Notes under the pieces: model-generated
What the model was told of the DNA's origin: nothing
What the model saw: only the letters and a program-made list of their open reading frames with translations
Database searches by the model: none
Part shown: positions 1 through 6,274 of the stretch, piece by piece
How positions within the stretch are numbered: position 1 is the stretch's first letter
Layout of the letters: each line of letters opens with the position of its first letter
Made by a program: the position numbers and the translations under genes
Virus record (IMG/VR): IMGVR_UViG_2703718849_000001
Location: 1-6,274 of that record
From: a virus
Lineage: Duplodnaviria > Heunggongvirae > Uroviricota > Caudoviricetes
Strand: one strand, 5' to 3'
DNA length: 6,274 bases

Positions 1-97
1 ATGGTGTCCCCTGCAGACATCTACTTGAAGCGACAGGGGATTGATTGGAATGGTGTTTTTTAGATGTGAAAAATATTTTACCCGCTATTTTACCCAT
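1..97 (-). CDS. Possible 5' end of an integrase gene (N-terminal fragment running off the left edge)
   Basis: Minus-strand ATG at 97..95 opens a frame (MGKIAGKIFFTSKKHHSNQSPVASSRCLQGTP...) with no stop down to position 1. It overlaps the excisionase stop (92..90) by 8 nt, the usual xis-int arrangement. No clear Shine-Dalgarno; the integrase call is positional inference only. Confidence 0.3.
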   Translation of the reverse strand, partial: MGKIAGKIFFTSKKHHSNQSPVASSRCLQGTP

Positions 98-290
98 TGG
101 CGCGGCTTAAGAGCTTATTTTTGAATTCACAATGGTCACGATATAACCATCTTGCTCGCCCGTGGATAACTTTGGCTTTAGGCAGGTCTCCGGACTTAAT
201 CCGGTCATAGATGAAGGTTTTACCGAAGCCAGTATCGGCCATGATGAATTTCAAATCAACCAGGGAATCAGGCTGTAGTTCGTGTTGCAT
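90..290 (-). CDS. xis: AlpA-family excisionase / prophage DNA-binding regulator (66 aa)
   Basis: ATG at 290..288 with GGAG about 9 nt upstream, TAA at 92..90. The pattern ...LKFIMADTGFGKTFIYDRIKSGDLP...RWLYRD... fits the AlpA/Xis helix-turn-helix family signature as I recall it (TG-x5-IY ... LP ... W). Sits at the distal end of the leftward operon. Confidence 0.7.
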   Translation of the reverse strand: MQHELQPDSLVDLKFIMADTGFGKTFIYDRIKSGDLPKAKVIHGRARWLYRDHCEFKNKLLSRANG

Positions 291-330
291 GAGTGCTATC
301 TCCGAATAGGGAATCGAACCTGCAAATCAG

Positions 331-358
331 GCAATAAAAAACCGCCATCAGGCGGCTT
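331..358 (-). terminator. Rho-independent terminator candidate (minus strand)
   Basis: Stem ccgcc (342-346) / ggcgg (351-355) with 4-nt loop, followed on the minus strand by UUUUUUAUU (plus 333-341). The TGA stop of the small ORF 348..515 lies in the loop. Confidence 0.45.
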
Positions 359-515
359 GGTGTTCTTTCAGTTCTTCAATTCGAATATTGGTTACGTCTG
401 CATGCGCTATCTGCGCCCATATCATCCAGTGGTTATAGCAGTCGTTGATGTCCTCTGCTTCGATAACTCTGTTGAATGGTTCTCCATTCCATTCACCTGT
501 GACTCGGAAGTGCAT
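348..515 (-). CDS. Small hypothetical protein (55 aa), below the ORF-track cutoff
   Basis: Hand translation gives MHFRVTGEWNGEPFNRVIEAEDINDCYNHWMIWAQIAHADVTNIRIEELKEHQAA. ATG at 515..513 is preceded by GGAG with 7-nt spacing; TGA at 350..348. It occupies the slot between lar and xis where Rac carries ydaC (order recalled, not checked). Confidence 0.55.
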   Translation of the reverse strand: MHFRVTGEWNGEPFNRVIEAEDINDCYNHWMIWAQIAHADVTNIRIEELKEHQAA

Positions 516-523
516 TTATCATC

Positions 524-553
524 TCCATAAAACAAAACTCGCCGTAGCGAGTT
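524..553 (-). terminator. Hairpin plus U-tract, terminator candidate (minus strand)
   Basis: Stem aactcgc (536-542) / gcgagtt (547-553), loop cgta; on the minus strand it is followed by UUGUUUUAU, immediately upstream of the SD of the 348..515 ORF. Confidence 0.35.
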
Positions 554-615
554 CAGATAAAAGAAATCCCCGCGAGTGCGAGGATTGTTATTCACCTTTG
601 ACGGCAAGTTGCAGG

Positions 616-918
616 TTAGCCATGGTTAACCTCCTGCGGAGTAGCCTTTACAAGCACTGGTGTAAATCCATCTTCATTAAGGTTATGAATATAGACTTCC
701 GTTCTCCTGCGCTCTTCAGCGTTTAATATGGTTTCTGGATCATAAACCCATACTTTCATTCGACTATTCCATGAAGAAATCGCTTCAGATTTAGTTCGTT
801 TTTCTGGTCCTTGGGCACCACATTTGCATGACACATAGCGCATTTTCCCTCTGATACTGAATGAGTATCCGATGTTAAGCACAGTGGAACCACAGAATGG
901 GCAGCGATATAGATTCAT
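616..918 (-). CDS. lar: Lar-family restriction-alleviation protein (zinc ribbon), 100 aa
   Basis: ATG at 918..916 with AAGGTGG about 8 nt upstream, overlapping the upstream gene's TGA (ATGA). N-terminal CPFCG ... CKCGA two-CxxC motif and ISSWNSR match the Lar family as I recall it. Confidence 0.65.
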   Translation of the reverse strand: MNLYRCPFCGSTVLNIGYSFSIRGKMRYVSCKCGAQGPEKRTKSEAISSWNSRMKVWVYDPETILNAEERRRTEVYIHNLNEDGFTPVLVKATPQEVNHG

Positions 919-1511
919 AAATCATCCACCTTAGGCGCAGCTGAGACAGCAACATTCCAGAACTCAGAAAACATATTGTATGCACCAGATAGATTGGAAG
1001 TGGCATACCCTCCAAGCTCACTTCTAATCTGAACGGCTCTCATCATTTCCGGGGTTAACTCCTTCGGCACCATAACCCAACCATCCGGAATTACCGGAGA
1101 GTTGCCGGGTTCTTTAATGTGCAAGCGAGGCTCACCATCTTTTGGCTCAGGCCACTGGCGCTCCATGTTGATCTTCAATTTATCTTCCATAGCAGCGGTA
1201 ATTTCAGCATCGCTGATGCAAGCACGGCGCTGTGCATCCCACAACAGAAACTGCATATCAGCCCACTCGCTAAGATCGTCTGGTTCGGCTGCGGCTTCCA
1301 GTGCCTCTTTTGAGAGATGTTTCAGCGGACCAATGGGGCCAACGCAGCCAAATGTGGAGTCAGACCATTTGGCATGCTCGTGGCGAATCTGTTCGCGTTC
1401 CAGTGATGCCAGTGCAATCCGTGCCAGTTCCATTTGTTCGCCACGGGTAAGCCCGTTATCAAGCGGATTTTTAATGAATAATTCGATACGTTCTTTGGTA
1501 ATAGTGGTCAT
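915..1511 (-). CDS. Hypothetical phage protein (198 aa), acidic
   Basis: ATG at 1511..1509 with AAGGTGA SD at 9-nt spacing; long uninterrupted ORF; stop overlaps the lar start. No family recognised. Confidence 0.75.
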   Translation of the reverse strand: MTTITKERIELFIKNPLDNGLTRGEQMELARIALASLEREQIRHEHAKWSDSTFGCVGPIGPLKHLSKEALEAAAEPDDLSEWADMQFLLWDAQRRACISDAEITAAMEDKLKINMERQWPEPKDGEPRLHIKEPGNSPVIPDGWVMVPKELTPEMMRAVQIRSELGGYATSNLSGAYNMFSEFWNVAVSAAPKVDDL

Positions 1512-1513
1512 AG

Positions 1514-1705
1514 CTATTTCACCTTAATCTCAACATTTCGCAGCTTTAGCTCTACTGGCAGGTCTGACTTTCCTGTTAATGCTAATGCGAGATTTTCTGG
1601 GGTAATGAGAGCAGTTATTGCTTTCCCCATTGCCAGACGAATAATTATTCGTATTTCGCGATCGTCACATGCTCCTGGTAGAACGATTGATATTTGTCCG
1701 TCCAT
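1514..1705 (-). CDS. Hypothetical small protein (63 aa)
   Basis: ATG at 1705..1703 preceded by AGGAG (6-nt spacing) inside the end of the upstream gene; 1 nt separates the upstream TGA from this ATG, and its own TAG is 2 nt from the next ATG. Confidence 0.6.
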   Translation of the reverse strand: MDGQISIVLPGACDDREIRIIIRLAMGKAITALITPENLALALTGKSDLPVELKLRNVEIKVK

Positions 1706-1706
1706 C

Positions 1707-2114
1707 TCACTCTCCTTTGATGCGAATGCCTGCGGCGCGGATTGCAGCGATGACTTCAGAAACTTTGTATGCCATTACCGTTTGGTAATCATCGTGAAAA
1801 TCTGTTCGATGAAGCATGCTGCTACGTTCCGGGAGCGATATTTCCCGCGCTTCCAGTTCTGCAATGCGCTTTTTTGCTGCTTCCAGTTCATCCAGTAATT
1901 CCAGTACGGTAGCCGGATTAGCCTTGGCAACAAAATCCCGGACTGGCTTACAATCAATCTCCGCAATGGGTTGATACGATGTGTAGCCATGCTGTCTTGT
2001 ATAACTACCGTGACGAATAACAAAAAAATCACCATTTATTTTTTTAGCCTGCCACTTATCTTCACCGGCTTTCTCTGCCGCTTCACGCAGTGCCTGATAG
2101 TCAATCTTGTTCAT
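1707..2114 (-). CDS. Ead/Ea22-like family protein (135 aa)
   Basis: ATG at 2114..2112 with GGTGA SD. Central coiled-coil segment ATVLELLDELEAAKKRIAELEAR resembles the ead/Ea22-like proteins of lambdoid early-left regions (recollection). Confidence 0.7.
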   Translation of the reverse strand: MNKIDYQALREAAEKAGEDKWQAKKINGDFFVIRHGSYTRQHGYTSYQPIAEIDCKPVRDFVAKANPATVLELLDELEAAKKRIAELEAREISLPERSSMLHRTDFHDDYQTVMAYKVSEVIAAIRAAGIRIKGE

Positions 2115-2115
2115 G

Positions 2116-2415
2116 TCACATCACCCTGAATCCGTTGCATTTACGTAAGAAATCGCAGATATAGCCCTTCATTTTTTCATGACAATCTCGATCATTCCCA
2201 TTGCACCAACCATCAGGTGGAGTCCAGTTTTCTATCAGAGCAGCCATTTTCTTTGCTTTCGCCGGAGTAGCTGTTGCGGTATCGCAGTAATGACGAGTGT
2301 CAACCAACGCATCCATACCATCGATATCAAGTACGCAAAACCATGTGTGATTCGGAATTCCTACAGGTGGTATTTGTTGCCCACGTCGACGTTTATCAAT
2401 AAGATATACACTCAC
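2116..2415 (-). CDS. Hypothetical Cys-rich protein (99 aa from GTG)
   Basis: The ORF-track frame 2116..2436 begins with GTG at 2436; a second in-frame GTG at 2415..2413 is preceded by a perfect AGGAGG (2427..2422) with 6-nt spacing and overlaps the TGA of the upstream 55-aa ORF (GTGA). C-terminal C-x7-C-x9-C-x6-C spacing. Confidence 0.6.
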
Positions 2416-2579
2416 TGCTTGCCTCCTTTGCGCCACATCGCATTCAGATATTTGTTTTGATTTACTGACGGAAAAGAATTTCTCTTAAGCAATTCCTCTC
2501 TCGATGGCATTGGCTTTACGCGTTGGCGAATAATCATTTCTGCCGGAAGAATGCCGGGGTTGTATGCAAGTCCTCTCAT
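2412..2579 (-). CDS. Small hypothetical protein (55 aa), below the ORF-track cutoff
   Basis: Hand translation gives [58 protein letters not shown] at 2579..2577 overlaps the TGA of the upstream gene (ATGA) and has GGAG 6 nt upstream; its own TGA overlaps the downstream GTG start. It fills an otherwise empty 160-nt gap exactly. Confidence 0.5.
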
Positions 2580-2866
2580 GATTTACTCTCCACGAACTGG
2601 TCAATAGCCATGCTAAGTGACATACCTAAAGTCTCGATATGCTGCTGAATATCCTGTAGCGTCTGCGCCTGAGATAACAGGATTTCACGGTTGCATAACT
2701 CTTTAACCAGATGCTCAAACTTGCTGTAATAACCGATACGGCTTAGTGTTTCTTTCCCTGCATTCTCGCCTTCTTTGATAATTCCTCTTTCGCTAAGAAT
2801 CAGATCGTGTTTTGTTCCGGTAATAACGTATTTTCCGAGGTCGATGTTTAGCTTCATTGTTTTCAT
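2576..2866 (-). CDS. Hypothetical protein (96 aa)
   Basis: The 146-aa track ORF starts at TTG inside the upstream gene. The ATG at 2866..2864 ([14 protein letters not shown]...) lies 10 nt past the upstream TGA with GAGGA SD at 7-nt spacing, so the gene is trimmed to 2576..2866. Confidence 0.65.
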
Positions 2867-2876
2867 TGTTAATTCC

Positions 2877-3170
2877 TCAGTCATTACTGATAGCGCCATA
2901 GCGTGAGCGGTAATTACGCAGGCGCGGGTCGATTTCAGGGAAGTGGGTATATGTGGCTTTGCGGAATGGTCGGATTGATGTCTGGTAAATTCGCTCTCGT
3001 TCTTCTTTCTCTGCAAGCCATATGCAGTGGCGAAACTCCTTTTCCTCTTTCGTTTCCTGCGGTAGAGACATTATTCGATCGTAGTTTTTTCTGAATTTAT
3101 CCAGCACCTCCGATACGGAATTGCCGGAACAGCGGCGCGCGTCATCCGCACCATACAGAGGCGCTGGCAT
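2877..3170 (-). CDS. Hypothetical protein (97 aa), basic
   Basis: ATG at 3170..3168 with AAGGA SD about 8 nt upstream; TGA at 2879..2877. No family recognised. Confidence 0.65.
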   Translation of the reverse strand: MPAPLYGADDARRCSGNSVSEVLDKFRKNYDRIMSLPQETKEEKEFRHCIWLAEKEERERIYQTSIRPFRKATYTHFPEIDPRLRNYRSRYGAISND

Positions 3171-3193
3171 AATTAAATCCTTATTTTTCTAAA

Positions 3194-3577
3194 TCAGAAT
3201 GGGATGGAATCGTCGTATACAGGAGTGTTCTGCTGGTTACTACTTTGCTGCTGCGGGCCATTTCCTGAAGCTGCAAATCCAATCTTTGCATTCAGTAATT
3301 CAAGAGTGATTGATTGACAATTTTGCCCCTGATAAACATCAACCCTGATGTTTTCTCCGGTAATTTCCACAATGCCACCTTCAACAAGAACACTACGGTA
3401 GTAATCCGCTTGCGCTCCCGGCTTGGCAAATACAACGGCGCTGTAGTTTGTCCATTCTTTCTTTTTTGTCTGGCGATCGTAATGCTGAACTCCAGCACGG
3501 ATGTTGAATCCGATATTTTCCCCGGCCTGAAACTCTCTTGCGGGCTTGTTTAGTCTTACAGTAATCGAATGTGCCAT
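3194..3577 (-). CDS. ssb: Phage SSB-like single-stranded DNA-binding protein (127 aa) with acidic C-terminal tip
   Basis: C-terminus ...NTPVYDDSIPF matches the conserved SSB tail (E. coli SSB ends DDDIPF), preceded by a Gln/Ser-rich linker. The ATG at 3577..3575 (MAHSITV...) overlaps the Erf TAA (TAATG); the track's 157-aa version is an out-of-frame upstream extension. Confidence 0.75.
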   Translation of the reverse strand: MAHSITVRLNKPAREFQAGENIGFNIRAGVQHYDRQTKKKEWTNYSAVVFAKPGAQADYYRSVLVEGGIVEITGENIRVDVYQGQNCQSITLELLNAKIGFAASGNGPQQQSSNQQNTPVYDDSIPF

Positions 3578-4182
3578 TAAGCAGCAGCTCCTTCTAATTC
3601 GTCTCGTCTGATGTTGTAAACGTCCTGCGCTTTGTGCTGCTCCGGTGTGCCTTCGAGCATCTTCCACGCTTTGGCGAACGCCTGTTTAAGCTCTTCTACG
3701 GTGTTTTTCTGCATTGCTGCGTCAGTGAATGCTTTTAGAACCTGTTCAGGTGTAGGTAATGGTTTTGATTGCTTTGCTGCTGCGTTCTGCTGATGTTTAT
3801 GCTCGTCGGTATCTGCATCTTTCGCATCATCAATGCCGAATAAACCATTGAGGCAATACTTGCGTGCATAAGAGCTTGTAGCTCCCGTAACTTGTGCAGA
3901 ATCCATTCCTTTCTTGCTTTCTTCCTCTCGTGCAAGAGCGGTTGCTTTATGACTGTTTTCGCCATCAGTAATAGTTGCCGTTGCTTTCACGTAATACCGA
4001 TCACCAATCAACACAACTTCATCGCTGATTGATAAAAACAGGCCATTCAGTAACGGCTTAACACCCTCAAGAATGTCTTCGCAGCTTCTGTATTTATATT
4101 TGCCGAATGAGTTGTATTGATTCTTTGGCGCGTTCAGATTCTCCTGAATAGCTGCCAGCCTTGCGTAAAATTCTTTGCTCAT
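3577..4182 (-). CDS. erf: Erf-family single-strand annealing recombinase (201 aa)
   Basis: From the ATG at 4182..4180 the protein begins MSKEFYARLAAIQENLNAPKNQYNSFGKYKYRSCEDILEGVKPLL..., which matches my recollection of P22 Erf. The track's start is a TTG at 4212, 10 codons upstream. TAA overlaps the ssb start. Confidence 0.8.
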   Translation of the reverse strand: MSKEFYARLAAIQENLNAPKNQYNSFGKYKYRSCEDILEGVKPLLNGLFLSISDEVVLIGDRYYVKATATITDGENSHKATALAREEESKKGMDSAQVTGATSSYARKYCLNGLFGIDDAKDADTDEHKHQQNAAAKQSKPLPTPEQVLKAFTDAAMQKNTVEELKQAFAKAWKMLEGTPEQHKAQDVYNIRRDELEGAAA

Positions 4183-4283
4183 ATGTTTGTTCTCAGAATG
4201 GACATTCCCCAAGGAAATAACGCTGATTTAATACTTCGACTCGGGACAAATTAAGGCATACCCGCATTCCTTCGCGGTCGCCA

Positions 4284-4442
4284 TTATGGCGATGCCAGAG
4301 AGCTTTCTGCGTGTACATGCGTCTCTGTAACTTGCTCTCCTTCACTGTGGTTGCAAGTGACATGAATATCTCCTTCGTTACCGATTAATTCTTTCATCTG
4401 ACGAATGAATTCTTCGTCTGACCAGTTATCTGTAAAACTCAT
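4284..4442 (-). CDS. Small acidic hypothetical peptide (52 aa) between kil and erf
   Basis: Hand translation gives MSFTDNWSDEEFIRQMKELIGNEGDIHVTCNHSEGEQVTETHVHAESSLASP. ATG at 4442..4440 overlaps the kil TGA (ATGA); TAA at 4286..4284. No SD beyond the coupling; function unknown. Confidence 0.4.
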   Translation of the reverse strand: MSFTDNWSDEEFIRQMKELIGNEGDIHVTCNHSEGEQVTETHVHAESSLASP

Positions 4443-4591
4443 TTCCTGCGATACCACGGAAGGTTGATAGCTGATTTCATCGCTTTATTTGCTTCAAGCC
4501 ACATTTTTGAATCACCAATAAATCTGGCTATTACTGCTTTGTTCTGTGCAGCACGAAGCATCTGGTGATTGATGGCTATTTCATTGCGCAT
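4439..4591 (-). CDS. kil: Kil-like host cell-division inhibitor peptide (50 aa)
   Basis: Hand translation gives MRNEIAINHQMLRAAQNKAVIARFIGDSKMWLEANKAMKSAINLPWYRRK. The IA-x-FIGD-x-KM segment and the position directly downstream of, and overlapping, cIII fit lambda Kil as I recall it. GGAGG lies 4 nt upstream of the ATG at 4591. Confidence 0.5.
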   Translation of the reverse strand: MRNEIAINHQMLRAAQNKAVIARFIGDSKMWLEANKAMKSAINLPWYRRK

Positions 4592-4710
4592 AACGCCTCC
4601 AGTTGTTTCTTTGCTGCTCTGATTAATTGTTTAACTCGGCGTGATAATTCAGATTCGTGCGGGTAGAAAGCGGACATGACGCCGCTACCCGCGAGCTGAA
4701 AGTGCATCAT
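4576..4710 (-). CDS. cIII: CIII-like FtsH inhibitor peptide (44 aa)
   Basis: Hand translation gives MMHFQLAGSGVMSAFYPHESELSRRVKQLIRAAKKQLEALCAMK. GGAG lies 6 nt upstream of the ATG at 4710. The N-terminus and the central amphipathic helix ESELSRRVKQLIR align with lambda CIII (MQYAIAG...ESLLERITRKLRD, from memory). Confidence 0.6.
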   Translation of the reverse strand: MMHFQLAGSGVMSAFYPHESELSRRVKQLIRAAKKQLEALCAMK

Positions 4711-4740
4711 GGGTAACTCCTTATATTTGATTGCATAACG

Positions 4741-4765
4741 AAAACGCCTCAAGTGAAGCGTTATT
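4741..4765 (-). terminator. Hairpin plus U-tract, terminator candidate (minus strand) between ea10 and cIII
   Basis: Minus-strand RNA forms an 8-bp stem AACGCUUC / GAGGCGUU (one G-U wobble), loop ACUU, followed by UUCGUUAU. The plus-strand RNA would have a mismatch instead, so the structure is strand-specific. Confidence 0.35.
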
Positions 4766-4785
4766 GGTATGCGGTAAAGCCGCGC

Positions 4786-5154
4786 TCAGGCGGCTTTGAT
4801 AGTCATATCATCTGAATCAAATATTCCTGATGTATCGATATCGGTAATTCTTATTCCTTCACTACCATCCATTGGAGGCCATCCTTCCTGACCATTTCCA
4901 TCATCCCAGTCGAACTCACAAACAACACCATATGCATTTAAGTCTTTCGAAATTGCTATAAGCAGAGCATGTTGCGCCAGCATGATTAATACAGCATTTA
5001 ATACAGCGCCGTGTTTATTGAGTCGGTATTCAGAGTCTGACCAGAAATTATTAATCTGGTGAAGTTTTTCCTCTGTCATTACGTCATGGTCGATTTCAAT
5101 TTCTATTGATGCTTTCCAGTCGTAATCAATGATGTATTTTTTGATGTTTGACAT
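4786..5154 (-). CDS. ea10: Ea10-like early-left protein (122 aa)
   Basis: ATG at 5154..5152 with GAGGA SD at 9-nt spacing; 122 aa, the size and position of lambda Ea10 between ral and cIII. Sequence identity to Ea10 is recollection only. Confidence 0.6.
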   Translation of the reverse strand: MSNIKKYIIDYDWKASIEIEIDHDVMTEEKLHQINNFWSDSEYRLNKHGAVLNAVLIMLAQHALLIAISKDLNAYGVVCEFDWDDGNGQEGWPPMDGSEGIRITDIDTSGIFDSDDMTIKAA

Positions 5155-5171
5155 CTATTCATATCCTCATA

Positions 5172-5200
5172 GATAAAAAATCGCCCTCACACTGGAGGGC
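5172..5200 (-). terminator. Rho-independent terminator candidate (minus strand) upstream of ea10
   Basis: Minus-strand stem GCCCUC / GAGGGC (plus 5183-5188 / 5195-5200), 6-nt loop, followed by GAUUUUUUAUCU. The plus-strand downstream flank is A/G-rich, so it is orientation-specific. Confidence 0.5.
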
Positions 5201-5295
5201 AAAGAAGATTTCCAATAATCAGAACAAGTCGGCTCCTGTTTAGTTACGAGCGACATTGCTCCGTGTATTCACTCGTTGGAATGAATACACAGTGC

Positions 5296-5508
5296 TTATT
5301 CGCGAGCTTTGAGCATGGCATCAGCAATAAAGTAGGCATCATCTGCTAATTCTTTGTACTGTGGTGAATTCTGTCCACCGCCAAAGGAATGTCCGTCCCA
5401 TCTGCGCACTATTGCTGCCATAGCCTTAGCAGCGAAGTAATCACGTAATGTCGCATCACTTGCCATTTCTGGGCGTTTGATATCTGCTTCATAAAACTCG
5501 CACATCAT
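5296..5508 (-). CDS. Hypothetical protein (70 aa)
   Basis: Tandem ATG ATG at 5508..5503 preceded by GGAGGTGA; the first ATG overlaps the TGA of the upstream 44-aa ORF (ATGA). No family recognised. Confidence 0.6.
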   Translation of the reverse strand: MMCEFYEADIKRPEMASDATLRDYFAAKAMAAIVRRWDGHSFGGGQNSPQYKELADDAYFIADAMLKARE

Positions 5509-5639
5509 TCACCTCCAAGAGCATTTGCAGCCTCTTTTGCTTTGTGAATCCATAGCAGAGCCATGCAGTACACAGCCTTTTCGTCGGCTCCTGTGATATC
5601 TTGCTCTGCCATCCATTTTGTAAATTCAACTGTGTTCAT
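5505..5639 (-). CDS. Small hypothetical protein (44 aa), below the ORF-track cutoff
   Basis: Hand translation gives MNTVEFTKWMAEQDITGADEKAVYCMALLWIHKAKEAANALGGE. ATG at 5639..5637 with GAGGTGA just upstream; TGA overlaps the start of the 70-aa gene. Confidence 0.45.
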   Translation of the reverse strand: MNTVEFTKWMAEQDITGADEKAVYCMALLWIHKAKEAANALGGE

Positions 5640-5660
5640 ATTCACCTCTGTTGTTTATGC

Positions 5661-5688
5661 CAAAAATAAAGGCCACCATCAGGCAGCC
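5661..5688 (-). terminator. Rho-independent terminator candidate (minus strand) immediately after ral
   Basis: Minus-strand RNA: GGCUGCC-UGAU-GGUGGCC (7 bp including two G-U wobbles) followed by UUUAUUUUUGG. The ral TGA (5681..5679) sits in the loop. The plus-strand RNA would have C-A mismatches. Confidence 0.5.
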
Positions 5689-5879
5689 TTGTTATTCTGT
5701 TTACCAAGTTCTCTGGCAATCATTGCCGTCGTTCGTATTGCCCATTTATCGACATATTTCCCATCTTCCATTACATGAAACATTTCTTCAGGCTTAACCA
5801 TGCATTCCGATTGCAGCTTGCATCCATTGCATCGCTTGAATTGTCCACACCATTGATTTGTATCAATAGTCGTAGTCAT
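5679..5879 (-). CDS. ral: Restriction-alleviation protein Ral (66 aa)
   Basis: MTTTIDTNQWCGQFKRCNGCKLQSECMVKPEEMFHVMEDGKYVDKWAIRTTAMIARELGKQNNKAA is near-identical to lambda Ral as I recall it, and of the same length. ATG at 5879..5877. Confidence 0.85.
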   Translation of the reverse strand: MTTTIDTNQWCGQFKRCNGCKLQSECMVKPEEMFHVMEDGKYVDKWAIRTTAMIARELGKQNNKAA

Positions 5880-5949
5880 ACGGATAGTCCTGGTATTGTT
5901 CCATCACATCCTGAGGATGCTCTTCGAACTCTTCAAATTCTTCTTCCAT
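5863..5949 (-). CDS. Orf28-like acidic peptide (28 aa) overlapping the ral start
   Basis: Hand translation gives MEEEFEEFEEHPQDVMEQYQDYPYDYDY. ATG at 5949..5947 with GAGGTGA upstream; TGA at 5865..5863, overlapping ral by 17 nt. This matches the lambda orf28/ral arrangement as I remember it. Confidence 0.35.
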   Translation of the reverse strand: MEEEFEEFEEHPQDVMEQYQDYPYDYDY

Positions 5950-5957
5950 ATCTCACC

Positions 5958-6274
5958 TCAAATAAGTGGTTTGCTGCCTAATTTCATTTTCTGGCGACCA
6001 ACACAAGTCACCCCCATTTCACTGCGTGGCTTGCTGTACCATGTGCGCTGATTCTTGCGCTCAATACGTTGCAGGTTGCTTTCAATCTGTTCGTGGTATT
6101 CAGCCAGCACTGTAAGGTCTATCGGATTCAGTGCGCTTTCTACTCGTGATTTCGGTTTGCGATTCAGCGAGAGAATAGGGCGGTTAACTGGTTTTGCGCT
6201 TACCCCAACCAACAGGGGATTTGCTGCTTTCCATTGAGCCTGTTTCTCTGCGCGACGTTCGCGGCGGCGTGTTT
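5958..6274 (-). CDS. N: Antitermination protein N (5' end truncated by the window edge; about 4 codons missing)
   Basis: The minus-strand frame is open from 6272 down to the stop at 5960..5958: TRRRERRAEKQAQWKAANPLLVGVSAKPVNRPILSLNRKPKSRVESALNPIDLTVLAEYHEQIESNLQRIERKNQRTWYSKP...PLI. The arginine-rich motif and most of the sequence match lambda N (MDAQTRRRERRAEKQAQWKAANPLL...); the C-terminal roughly 25 residues diverge. The track's TTG start at 6212 is an artefact. Confidence 0.9.
   Translation of the reverse strand, partial: TRRRERRAEKQAQWKAANPLLVGVSAKPVNRPILSLNRKPKSRVESALNPIDLTVLAEYHEQIESNLQRIERKNQRTWYSKPRSEMGVTCVGRQKMKLGSKPLI

Follow-up and report, generated by a model that had tools for sequence, protein, structure and literature searches.

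What lambdoid phages encode between kil and the erf-type recombinase gene, and to what end, is the question raised by a 6,274-nt stretch of a Caudoviricetes virus (IMG/VR record IMGVR_UViG_2703718849_000001, positions 1 to 6,274), which in its full length we call the window. A preliminary description of this DNA, made without database searches, had listed an acidic 52-aa peptide at 4284-4442, and this is correct: the open reading frame (ORF) concerned, here ORF A, runs on the minus strand from 4442 to 4284 with 52 codons plus TAA, and its product, MSFTDNWSDEEFIRQMKELIGNEGDIHVTCNHSEGEQVTETHVHAESSLASP, has a computed isoelectric point (pI) of 4.43, with 11 Asp plus Glu, two Lys plus Arg and four His residues. 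Sequence comparison identifies ORF A as a genuine small gene, the ortholog of Gp33 from phages HK75 and HK446, in the recombination region of the lambdoid early-left (PL) operon. There is strong support for ORF A being a real coding gene in which protein-level selection acts only on the N-terminal ~21 residues. There is also a second gene between kil and erf, ORF B, which was missed in the preliminary description. The interest of the locus rests mainly on this hidden overlapping gene, on the caveat that it introduces for a published experiment with Gp33, and on a possible link to the Arf protein of phage P22.

The earlier statement that ORF A has no recognisable similarity proved wrong. Over its whole length (residues 1-52 of 52) the product matches phrog_2123 (E 3.5e-41); tblastn found it in 77 phage records, and the family is represented by 53 protein clusters, the largest with 511 members and one of them named "accessory recombination function protein" by its source. 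Both PHROG 2123 and PHROG 1723, the family of ORF B, are labeled "recombinase", an uninformative label. The gene family was already known, under the annotation "hypothetical protein", from dozens of lambdoid phages. Orthologs are Sf6 gp30, HK022 gp42.1, HK106_039 and Gp33 of HK75 and HK446, with 87-98 % identity, and over the ORF A stretch the DNA of the window is ~98 % identical to that of phages HK106 and HK97. The two Gp33 proteins, annotated in the ORF A frame as HK75_33 and HK446_033, are identical to ORF A in residues 1-45; as in the window, their ATG overlaps the kil stop codon, and the operon position and the overlap with ORF B are the same. The HK022 and HK75 forms differ in having 56 aa instead of 52, because the stop codon lies 12 nt earlier in the window, and in the last seven residues, which belong to the unselected tail. 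A further difference with HK75 is the downstream recombinase, which is Rad52-like in that phage and Erf in the window.

The gene upstream of ORF A is kil (4439..4591, minus strand, 50 aa; PF06301 Lambda_Kil, E 1.7e-20; phrog_2055), and the kil stop codon and the ORF A start codon overlap in the sequence ATGA (4439..4442, minus). An overlap of this kind was present in 101 of 101 related loci (ATGA in 99, GTGA in two), regardless of whether the upstream gene was kil or an unrelated 56-aa gene, and the Shine-Dalgarno (SD) sequence of ORF A itself was weak or absent in them. Since the start codon always overlaps the upstream stop, ORF A is most likely translated by termination-reinitiation coupling with the upstream gene, in agreement with its initial description as a translationally coupled small ORF. 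The location also coincides, as had been proposed, with that of arf in P22 and gam in lambda, which occupy the same slot of the lambdoid PL operon. A search for non-coding functions within ORF A gave no Rfam match and neither a terminator nor a promoter above background inside the ORF; RNA folding of the region gave z = -1.76.

ORF B (4193..4363, minus) encodes a basic protein of 56 aa (pI 9.9) that belongs to phrog_1723 (E 6.1e-34), is the same as Sf6 gp29 and HK022 gp42, and is a homolog of HkaM from HK620 (hhalign probability 96 %, E 2.7e-9). Its frame is +1 relative to that of ORF A, and it overlaps the last 80 nt of this ORF (4284..4363, minus), so that residues 27-52 plus the stop codon of ORF A face codons 1-27 of ORF B. 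The SD sequence of ORF B, AAGGAG (4370..4375, minus), is situated 6 nt before its ATG (4363..4361) and within codons 23-24 of ORF A (E-G); codons 22-27 of ORF A double, therefore, as the ribosome-binding site and start of ORF B, and an alignment showed that the core GAAGGAG is kept in diverged lineages. ORF A was indeed placed correctly in the interval between kil and erf, but it does not adjoin erf (3577..4182, minus; 201 aa), an Erf-family single-strand annealing protein gene (PF04404 ERF, E 3.1e-44), because ORF B (4363..4193) intervenes, with 10 nt from its stop codon to the erf ATG. Both ORFs are annotated in HK106, HK022 (gp42.1 and gp42) and Sf6 (genes 30 and 29), and ORF B is without annotation in many phage records, such as those of HK75 and HK446 in GenBank and that of H-19B. 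HK620 HkaM was originally annotated as "arf" and occupies the same slot between kil and the recombinase gene as ORF A; it is, however, a homolog of ORF B, and HK620 has no ORF A. In line with this, ORF A did not match the HkaM/PHROG 1723 family, whose C-terminal part contains ...N.R.FL....PF, the overlapping ORF B being its member. Scans of both ORFs with Pfam, NCBIfam and PADLOC found nothing above noise.

Against ascertainment bias, the loci for comparison were retrieved through ORF B instead of ORF A. Of the 133 loci obtained, 101 have an ORF A-type frame with its N-terminal motif that extends into ORF B; the relative frame is always the same, and the overlap is 80-92 nt in nearly all cases (137 nt in one, L115). 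These frames fall into five diverged sequence types, namely that of the window, two from Enterobacter phages (MSIADTWSEDAFVRLMQDLIG... and MSIRDMSDEQFYHLMKDLIG...), an intermediate one, and one from Pseudocitrobacter with a GTG start; the amino acid identity of the motif in the diverged lineages is 44-60 %. The ratio of nonsynonymous to synonymous substitutions (dN/dS), calculated as pooled pairwise Nei-Gojobori estimates over 39 distinct sequences, differed sharply between regions. In codons 2-21 of ORF A, which include neither ORF B nor its SD sequence, it was 0.27 in frame A, 1.54 in frame B and 1.64 in the third frame, with 8, 10, and 18 variable sites at codon positions 1, 2, and 3, respectively. 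The corresponding values were 2.08, 0.26, and 1.01 in the overlap, and 2.18, 0.12, and 0.93 in the part with ORF B only (its codons 32-56). Within the overlap, purifying selection is confined to frame B. Since the frame-A ratio in the overlap is close to that found where frame A is not translated, the tail of ORF A lacks protein-level constraint.

These data strongly support that residues 27-52 of ORF A are a passenger tail whose sequence is dictated by the codons of ORF B. Both its end and its length vary by lineage (the last residues being HAESSLASP, HAAGVNVSPEGRS or DNDTSSVVASQG), and synonymous resampling of ORF B gave P values of 0.26-0.74 per lineage for the openness of the tail frame; in lineages without ORF A, this frame contains stops at 11-59 nt. 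The peptide had been described as rich in His and in Asp and Glu, and its acidity and four His are as stated, but all four His and the acidity of the tail are in residues 27-52, the unconstrained passenger of ORF B. The selected core of ORF A comprises codons 1-21 (MSFTDNWSDEEFIRQMKELIG; 4380..4442, minus), delimited by the frame-A dN/dS, by the AlphaFold2 model and by hhalign alignment to the Arf family. AlphaFold2 predicts for ORF A a single helix at residues 9-20, with a predicted local distance difference test (pLDDT) score of 70-81, and a low-confidence coil for the remainder, the overall confidence being low; as predicted, the helix would be amphipathic, with W7, F12, I13, M16, L19 and I20 on its hydrophobic face and D9, E10, E11 and E18 as acidic residues, and its region carries the motif [W/F]SDEEFI. 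There is strong support for residues 27-52 being disordered and mildly acidic. In two homologs the ORF A core carries tandem duplications, in frame and 21 nt long, of the helix heptad EFIRQMK, twice in a protein from E. coli (P0001) and three times in one from Salmonella Chester (P0024).

The universal ATGA/GTGA coupling, the weak or absent SD sequence of ORF A, the location of the SD sequence of ORF B inside it and the lack of constraint on its C-terminal half would all suit a mere translational relay, in which translation of ORF A hands ribosomes that come from kil on to ORF B and erf, its peptide being functionless. Such a role appears quite unlikely, because purifying selection on codons 2-21 is frame-specific and the motif is kept in diverged lineages; besides, ORF B has a strong SD sequence of its own and occurs elsewhere without ORF A, and plasmid-expressed Gp33 has a phenotype.

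HK97 (L001, 1679-1930) annotates a fused protein of 83 aa, Gp42.1, and about ten clusters of fused proteins of 81-82 aa exist in the protein collection, as if ORF A and ORF B were the halves of one protein, joined through a programmed +1 ribosomal frameshift or separated by an error of sequencing. We give this hardly any credence. The HK97 fusion requires two 1-nt insertions, 7 nt apart (alignment columns 132 and 139), that are lacking in the window, HK106 and HK022, and fusion junctions are scattered (residues 26, 29, 35, 43, 46, 49, and 50). Additionally, the split form, with clusters of 511 members, 364 contigs and 151 members, is far commoner than the fused ones, and ORF B, which stands alone in several lineages, is preceded by a perfect SD sequence and starts at an ATG of its own. 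A programmed frameshift was therefore rejected on account of the scattered junctions and the SD sequence of ORF B, and the fused proteins are read as probable sporadic frameshifts or assembly errors; the insertions in HK97 could stem from an error in the old sequence or represent a true frameshifted allele. In a natural fusion protein, AlphaFold2 modeled the portion from ORF B as a confident helical hairpin, and the hits of a Foldseek search of the PDB with the model of the A+B fusion were all generic helical hairpins with E of at least 1.

ORF B is situated 1-12 nt upstream of a recombinase gene in every locus examined, and these recombinases belong to the ERF family (two subtypes), to the Rad52_Rad22 type (HK75) and to the AAA_24/Sak4 type. 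Kluyvera, Erwinia-phage and other lineages, including several that encode ERF or Sak4, have it without an ORF A. Of the two ORFs, it is ORF B that goes more closely with the recombinase, ORF A being an optional extra in front. An Erf-specific role for ORF A is not supported, because the A-B pair also precedes Rad52-like and Sak4 recombinases. More generally, ORF A could be a direct cofactor of the phage recombinase, in the way commonly imagined for Arf with Erf, binding the strand-annealing protein or the phage SSB instead of a host factor. Its position immediately upstream of the recombination module, the motif that it has in common with Arf, which aids P22 recombination (PMC12315714; PMC9836394), and the acidic character of ORF A next to the basic character of ORF B, compatible with a complex, speak for this role. 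Nevertheless, we consider it improbable: ERF, Rad52-like and RecA-like Sak4 proteins have no common surface, yet the same peptide precedes each of them, Gp33 acts in uninfected cells with no phage partner, and several ERF- and Sak4-encoding lineages have ORF B and lack ORF A. Since one and the same peptide goes with all three families, the recombinase itself is probably not the target of ORF A. In Erwinia phage vB_EhrS_59 (L008, 1355-1504), a 49-aa ORF that precedes the ORF B homolog ends in ...RLKDFDFIRALYEMVSPGVKR; its C-terminal part shows a loose and weak likeness to the ORF A helix motif (3.4 bits, a score reached by shuffled sequences in 0.6 % of trials).

The only experimental data on a homolog of ORF A concern Gp33. 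In a preprint of July 2026, Gp33 from HK75 and from HK446 triggered, by itself, the abortive-infection toxicity of P2 OLD in uninfected cells; OLD is otherwise triggered by loss of recB and by two inhibitors of RecBCD, Gam and gp5.9, and the authors hypothesize that Gp33, as a new member of this group, inhibits or manipulates RecBCD (bioRxiv 10.64898/2026.07.10.737580). Given that HK75 Gp33 has residues 1-45 in common with ORF A, the initial guess of a recombination accessory factor or nuclease inhibitor matches these data, the RecBCD role being the hypothesis of those authors. The cloning primers of the preprint (Table S5) amplify the exact Gp33 coding sequence, from ATG AGT TTT ACA... to ...GGG AGA TCG TGA (bioRxiv 10.64898/2026.07.10.737580). 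However, this insert (HK75; L136, 1801-1971 and 1880-2050) also carries the SD sequence, the ATG and about 30 codons of ORF B. An active product could, then, be the HkaM-like ORF B, with ORF A being secondary and the OLD activity of "Gp33" being due to an ORF B polypeptide that is truncated and initiated at the internal SD sequence and ATG. ORF B is the more constrained of the two (dN/dS 0.12-0.26), has a perfect SD sequence, is present in more lineages than ORF A and always directly upstream of the strand-annealing gene, and has a homolog in HK620. We nonetheless regard it as unlikely that ORF B is the active product, since the insert is devoid of the most conserved part of ORF B, its C-terminal half (LNLSR.EVLNQRYFLG.CPF), a vector SD sequence drives ORF A in the construct, and the N-terminus of ORF A is itself under selection. 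Moreover, with the whole HK620 module, including hkaM, Sak4 recombineering was no higher than with sak4 plus ssb alone (PMC5928155), a result that bears on recombineering only and not on OLD. Because the annotated Gp33 coding sequence contains the start signals and first codons of ORF B, phenotypes assigned to "Gp33" need a control in which the two frames, A and B, are kept apart.

Lambda Gam and T7 gp5.9 are, like ORF A, small acidic early proteins, and both trigger OLD as the ORF A homolog Gp33 does; gam, additionally, has an equivalent operon position. Gam and gp5.9 are dimeric helical DNA mimics. ORF A has no similarity to lambda Gam or, in sequence, to any PDB chain, and differs in its predicted short helix and disordered tail; a PDB sequence search with the ORF A profile gave no match (the best hit, a cadherin, had E 0.64).

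The closest parallel is with P22 Arf (PF17585, PHROG 2445), a protein of 47 aa and pI 4.05, compared with 52 aa and pI 4.43 for ORF A. Both genes are translationally coupled and lie between kil and a strand-annealing gene, and in both products [F/W]-S-D-E-E-F-I stands at the same N-terminal register, with a hydrophobic periodicity after it. In BLASTP, ORF A and Arf had 6/7 identities, and hhalign aligned them over 17 columns with E 0.0028 and a probability of 11 %, or with E 7.7e-4 and 25 % for a broader N-terminal profile. With a hidden Markov model (HMM) of the ORF A N-terminus, Arf ranked first among 267 small ORFs from the six frames of P22 (8.5 bits; next, 4.5), and shuffled Arf reached the score of Arf in 0.04 % of trials. 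The motif codons of ORF A and Arf differ synonymously, for example in Ser TCA versus AGT. On the other hand, neither ORF A nor five relatives matched Pfam PF17585 Phage_Arf (gathering threshold, 27 bits) even at E<=1, whereas P22 Arf itself scored 121 bits. The two also differ in that ORF A lacks any equivalent of the C-terminal two-thirds that are conserved in Arf (EEEVEQQINLAAERQNP..W.EF.G), and in that Arf directly abuts erf, with no ORF B, while ORF A overlaps ORF B and accompanies three recombinase families. The comparison with Arf that had been suggested for this peptide thus yields a resemblance at the level of the motif, but not membership in Phage_Arf; that ORF A and Arf share a common module is plausible but unproven. 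A genetic phenotype of Arf, in Erf-dependent recombination or phage growth, was described by Poteete et al. in 1991 (as cited in PMC12315714), and Wilkinson et al. (2022) took its acidity and small size as a hint that it mimics DNA (PMC9836394).

A shorter peptide with the N-terminus of ORF A was found in HK140 (L005, 1501-1608) and SEN22 (L006, 1501-1608), as an unannotated 35-aa ORF (MSFTDNWSDEEFIRQMNKMLNQHKEQEKDDDSDSE) whose first 16 residues are common to ORF A, the acidic tail after them being different. Downstream of it, HK140 has an unknown gene of 103 aa and one of the RecT family; the corresponding gene of SEN22 carries the annotation "exodeoxyribonuclease VIII", which is an annotation alone. 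This peptide was considered as a case of independent conservation of the motif and rejected as such, the N-terminus being shared through near-identical DNA (50/51 nt). Since its first 50 nt are identical to the DNA of the window, it marks a recent mosaic joint inside the 52 codons of ORF A.

On balance, we favor the interpretation of ORF A as an Arf-like accessory peptide with a host target in DNA-end processing, such as RecBCD. The N-terminal helix would dock on this host factor, most plausibly RecBCD, and perturb it to the benefit of the recombination module of the phage; the perturbation would be what P2 OLD senses, as with Gam and gp5.9. ORF A would work like P22 Arf in this sense, through the [W/F]SDEEFI motif that both contain, its active part being the amphipathic acidic helix of ~20 residues and its tail largely a by-product of overprinting on ORF B. 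A homolog acts alone in uninfected cells and the recombinases are non-homologous, and a host target is therefore likelier than the phage recombinase.

Several points weigh against this interpretation. Binding or inhibition of RecBCD by Gp33 or ORF A is a hypothesis of the preprint, and a truncated ORF B product from the Gp33 insert may be the OLD trigger. The phage already carries Abc2, a known modifier of RecBCD. A single predicted helix of 12 residues, with no match to PDB sequences, is unlike the known DNA-mimic inhibitors. Homology to Arf is not established, considering the failure to match PF17585 and the low hhalign probabilities, and the HK140-type peptide, by its near-identical DNA, is not independent evidence. 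Finally, pooled pairwise dN/dS values consist of non-independent comparisons among a handful of lineages.

A broader proposal, possible though somewhat doubtful, is that the peptides with a [W/F]SDEEFI helix, that is, ORF A/Gp33 and P22 Arf, with the HK140/SEN22 form as a recent ORF A recombinant, constitute one widespread family of helical "warheads" of ~20 residues, which would travel with any phage recombinase since their target is a hub of the host (RecBCD or another DNA-end or SSB-associated factor); as a second conserved component, the recombination module would include ORF B/HkaM, whose 5' part contaminates the published Gp33 construct. If so, the 35-year-old Arf function would gain a molecular target, and the sensing of these phages by OLD would be explained. 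The motif in common with Arf and the association of ORF A with three recombinase families suggest a host target instead of a recombinase-specific cofactor, which makes the role of Arf directly testable. Likewise, since selection is confined to the first ~21 residues, a short synthetic peptide should carry the activity.

The remaining genes around ORF A in the window follow the lambdoid arrangement on the minus strand. Upstream, cIII (4576..4710, minus) overlaps the kil start; it was assigned from the ORF list and by correspondence with the annotation of HK97 and HK106. Downstream of erf, and overlapping its stop codon by 1 nt (TGATG), there is a gene for an SSB-like protein of the HK97 gp40 type (3194..3577, minus; ORF list and HK97 annotation), whose product ends in ...YDDSIPF, an SSB-like C-terminal tip. 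This type of protein has been named SSB-1b (PMC12315714), and in HK022 it is annotated as a likely Abc1 analog. It is followed by abc2 (2877..3170, minus), a homolog of anti-RecBCD protein 2, assigned from the ORF list and the annotation of the corresponding gene in HK97, HK106 and HK022. Lastly, upstream of cIII, there is a terminator-like hairpin at 4743-4762 (minus), the counterpart of tL, a rho-independent terminator in the annotation of HK97 and HK106.

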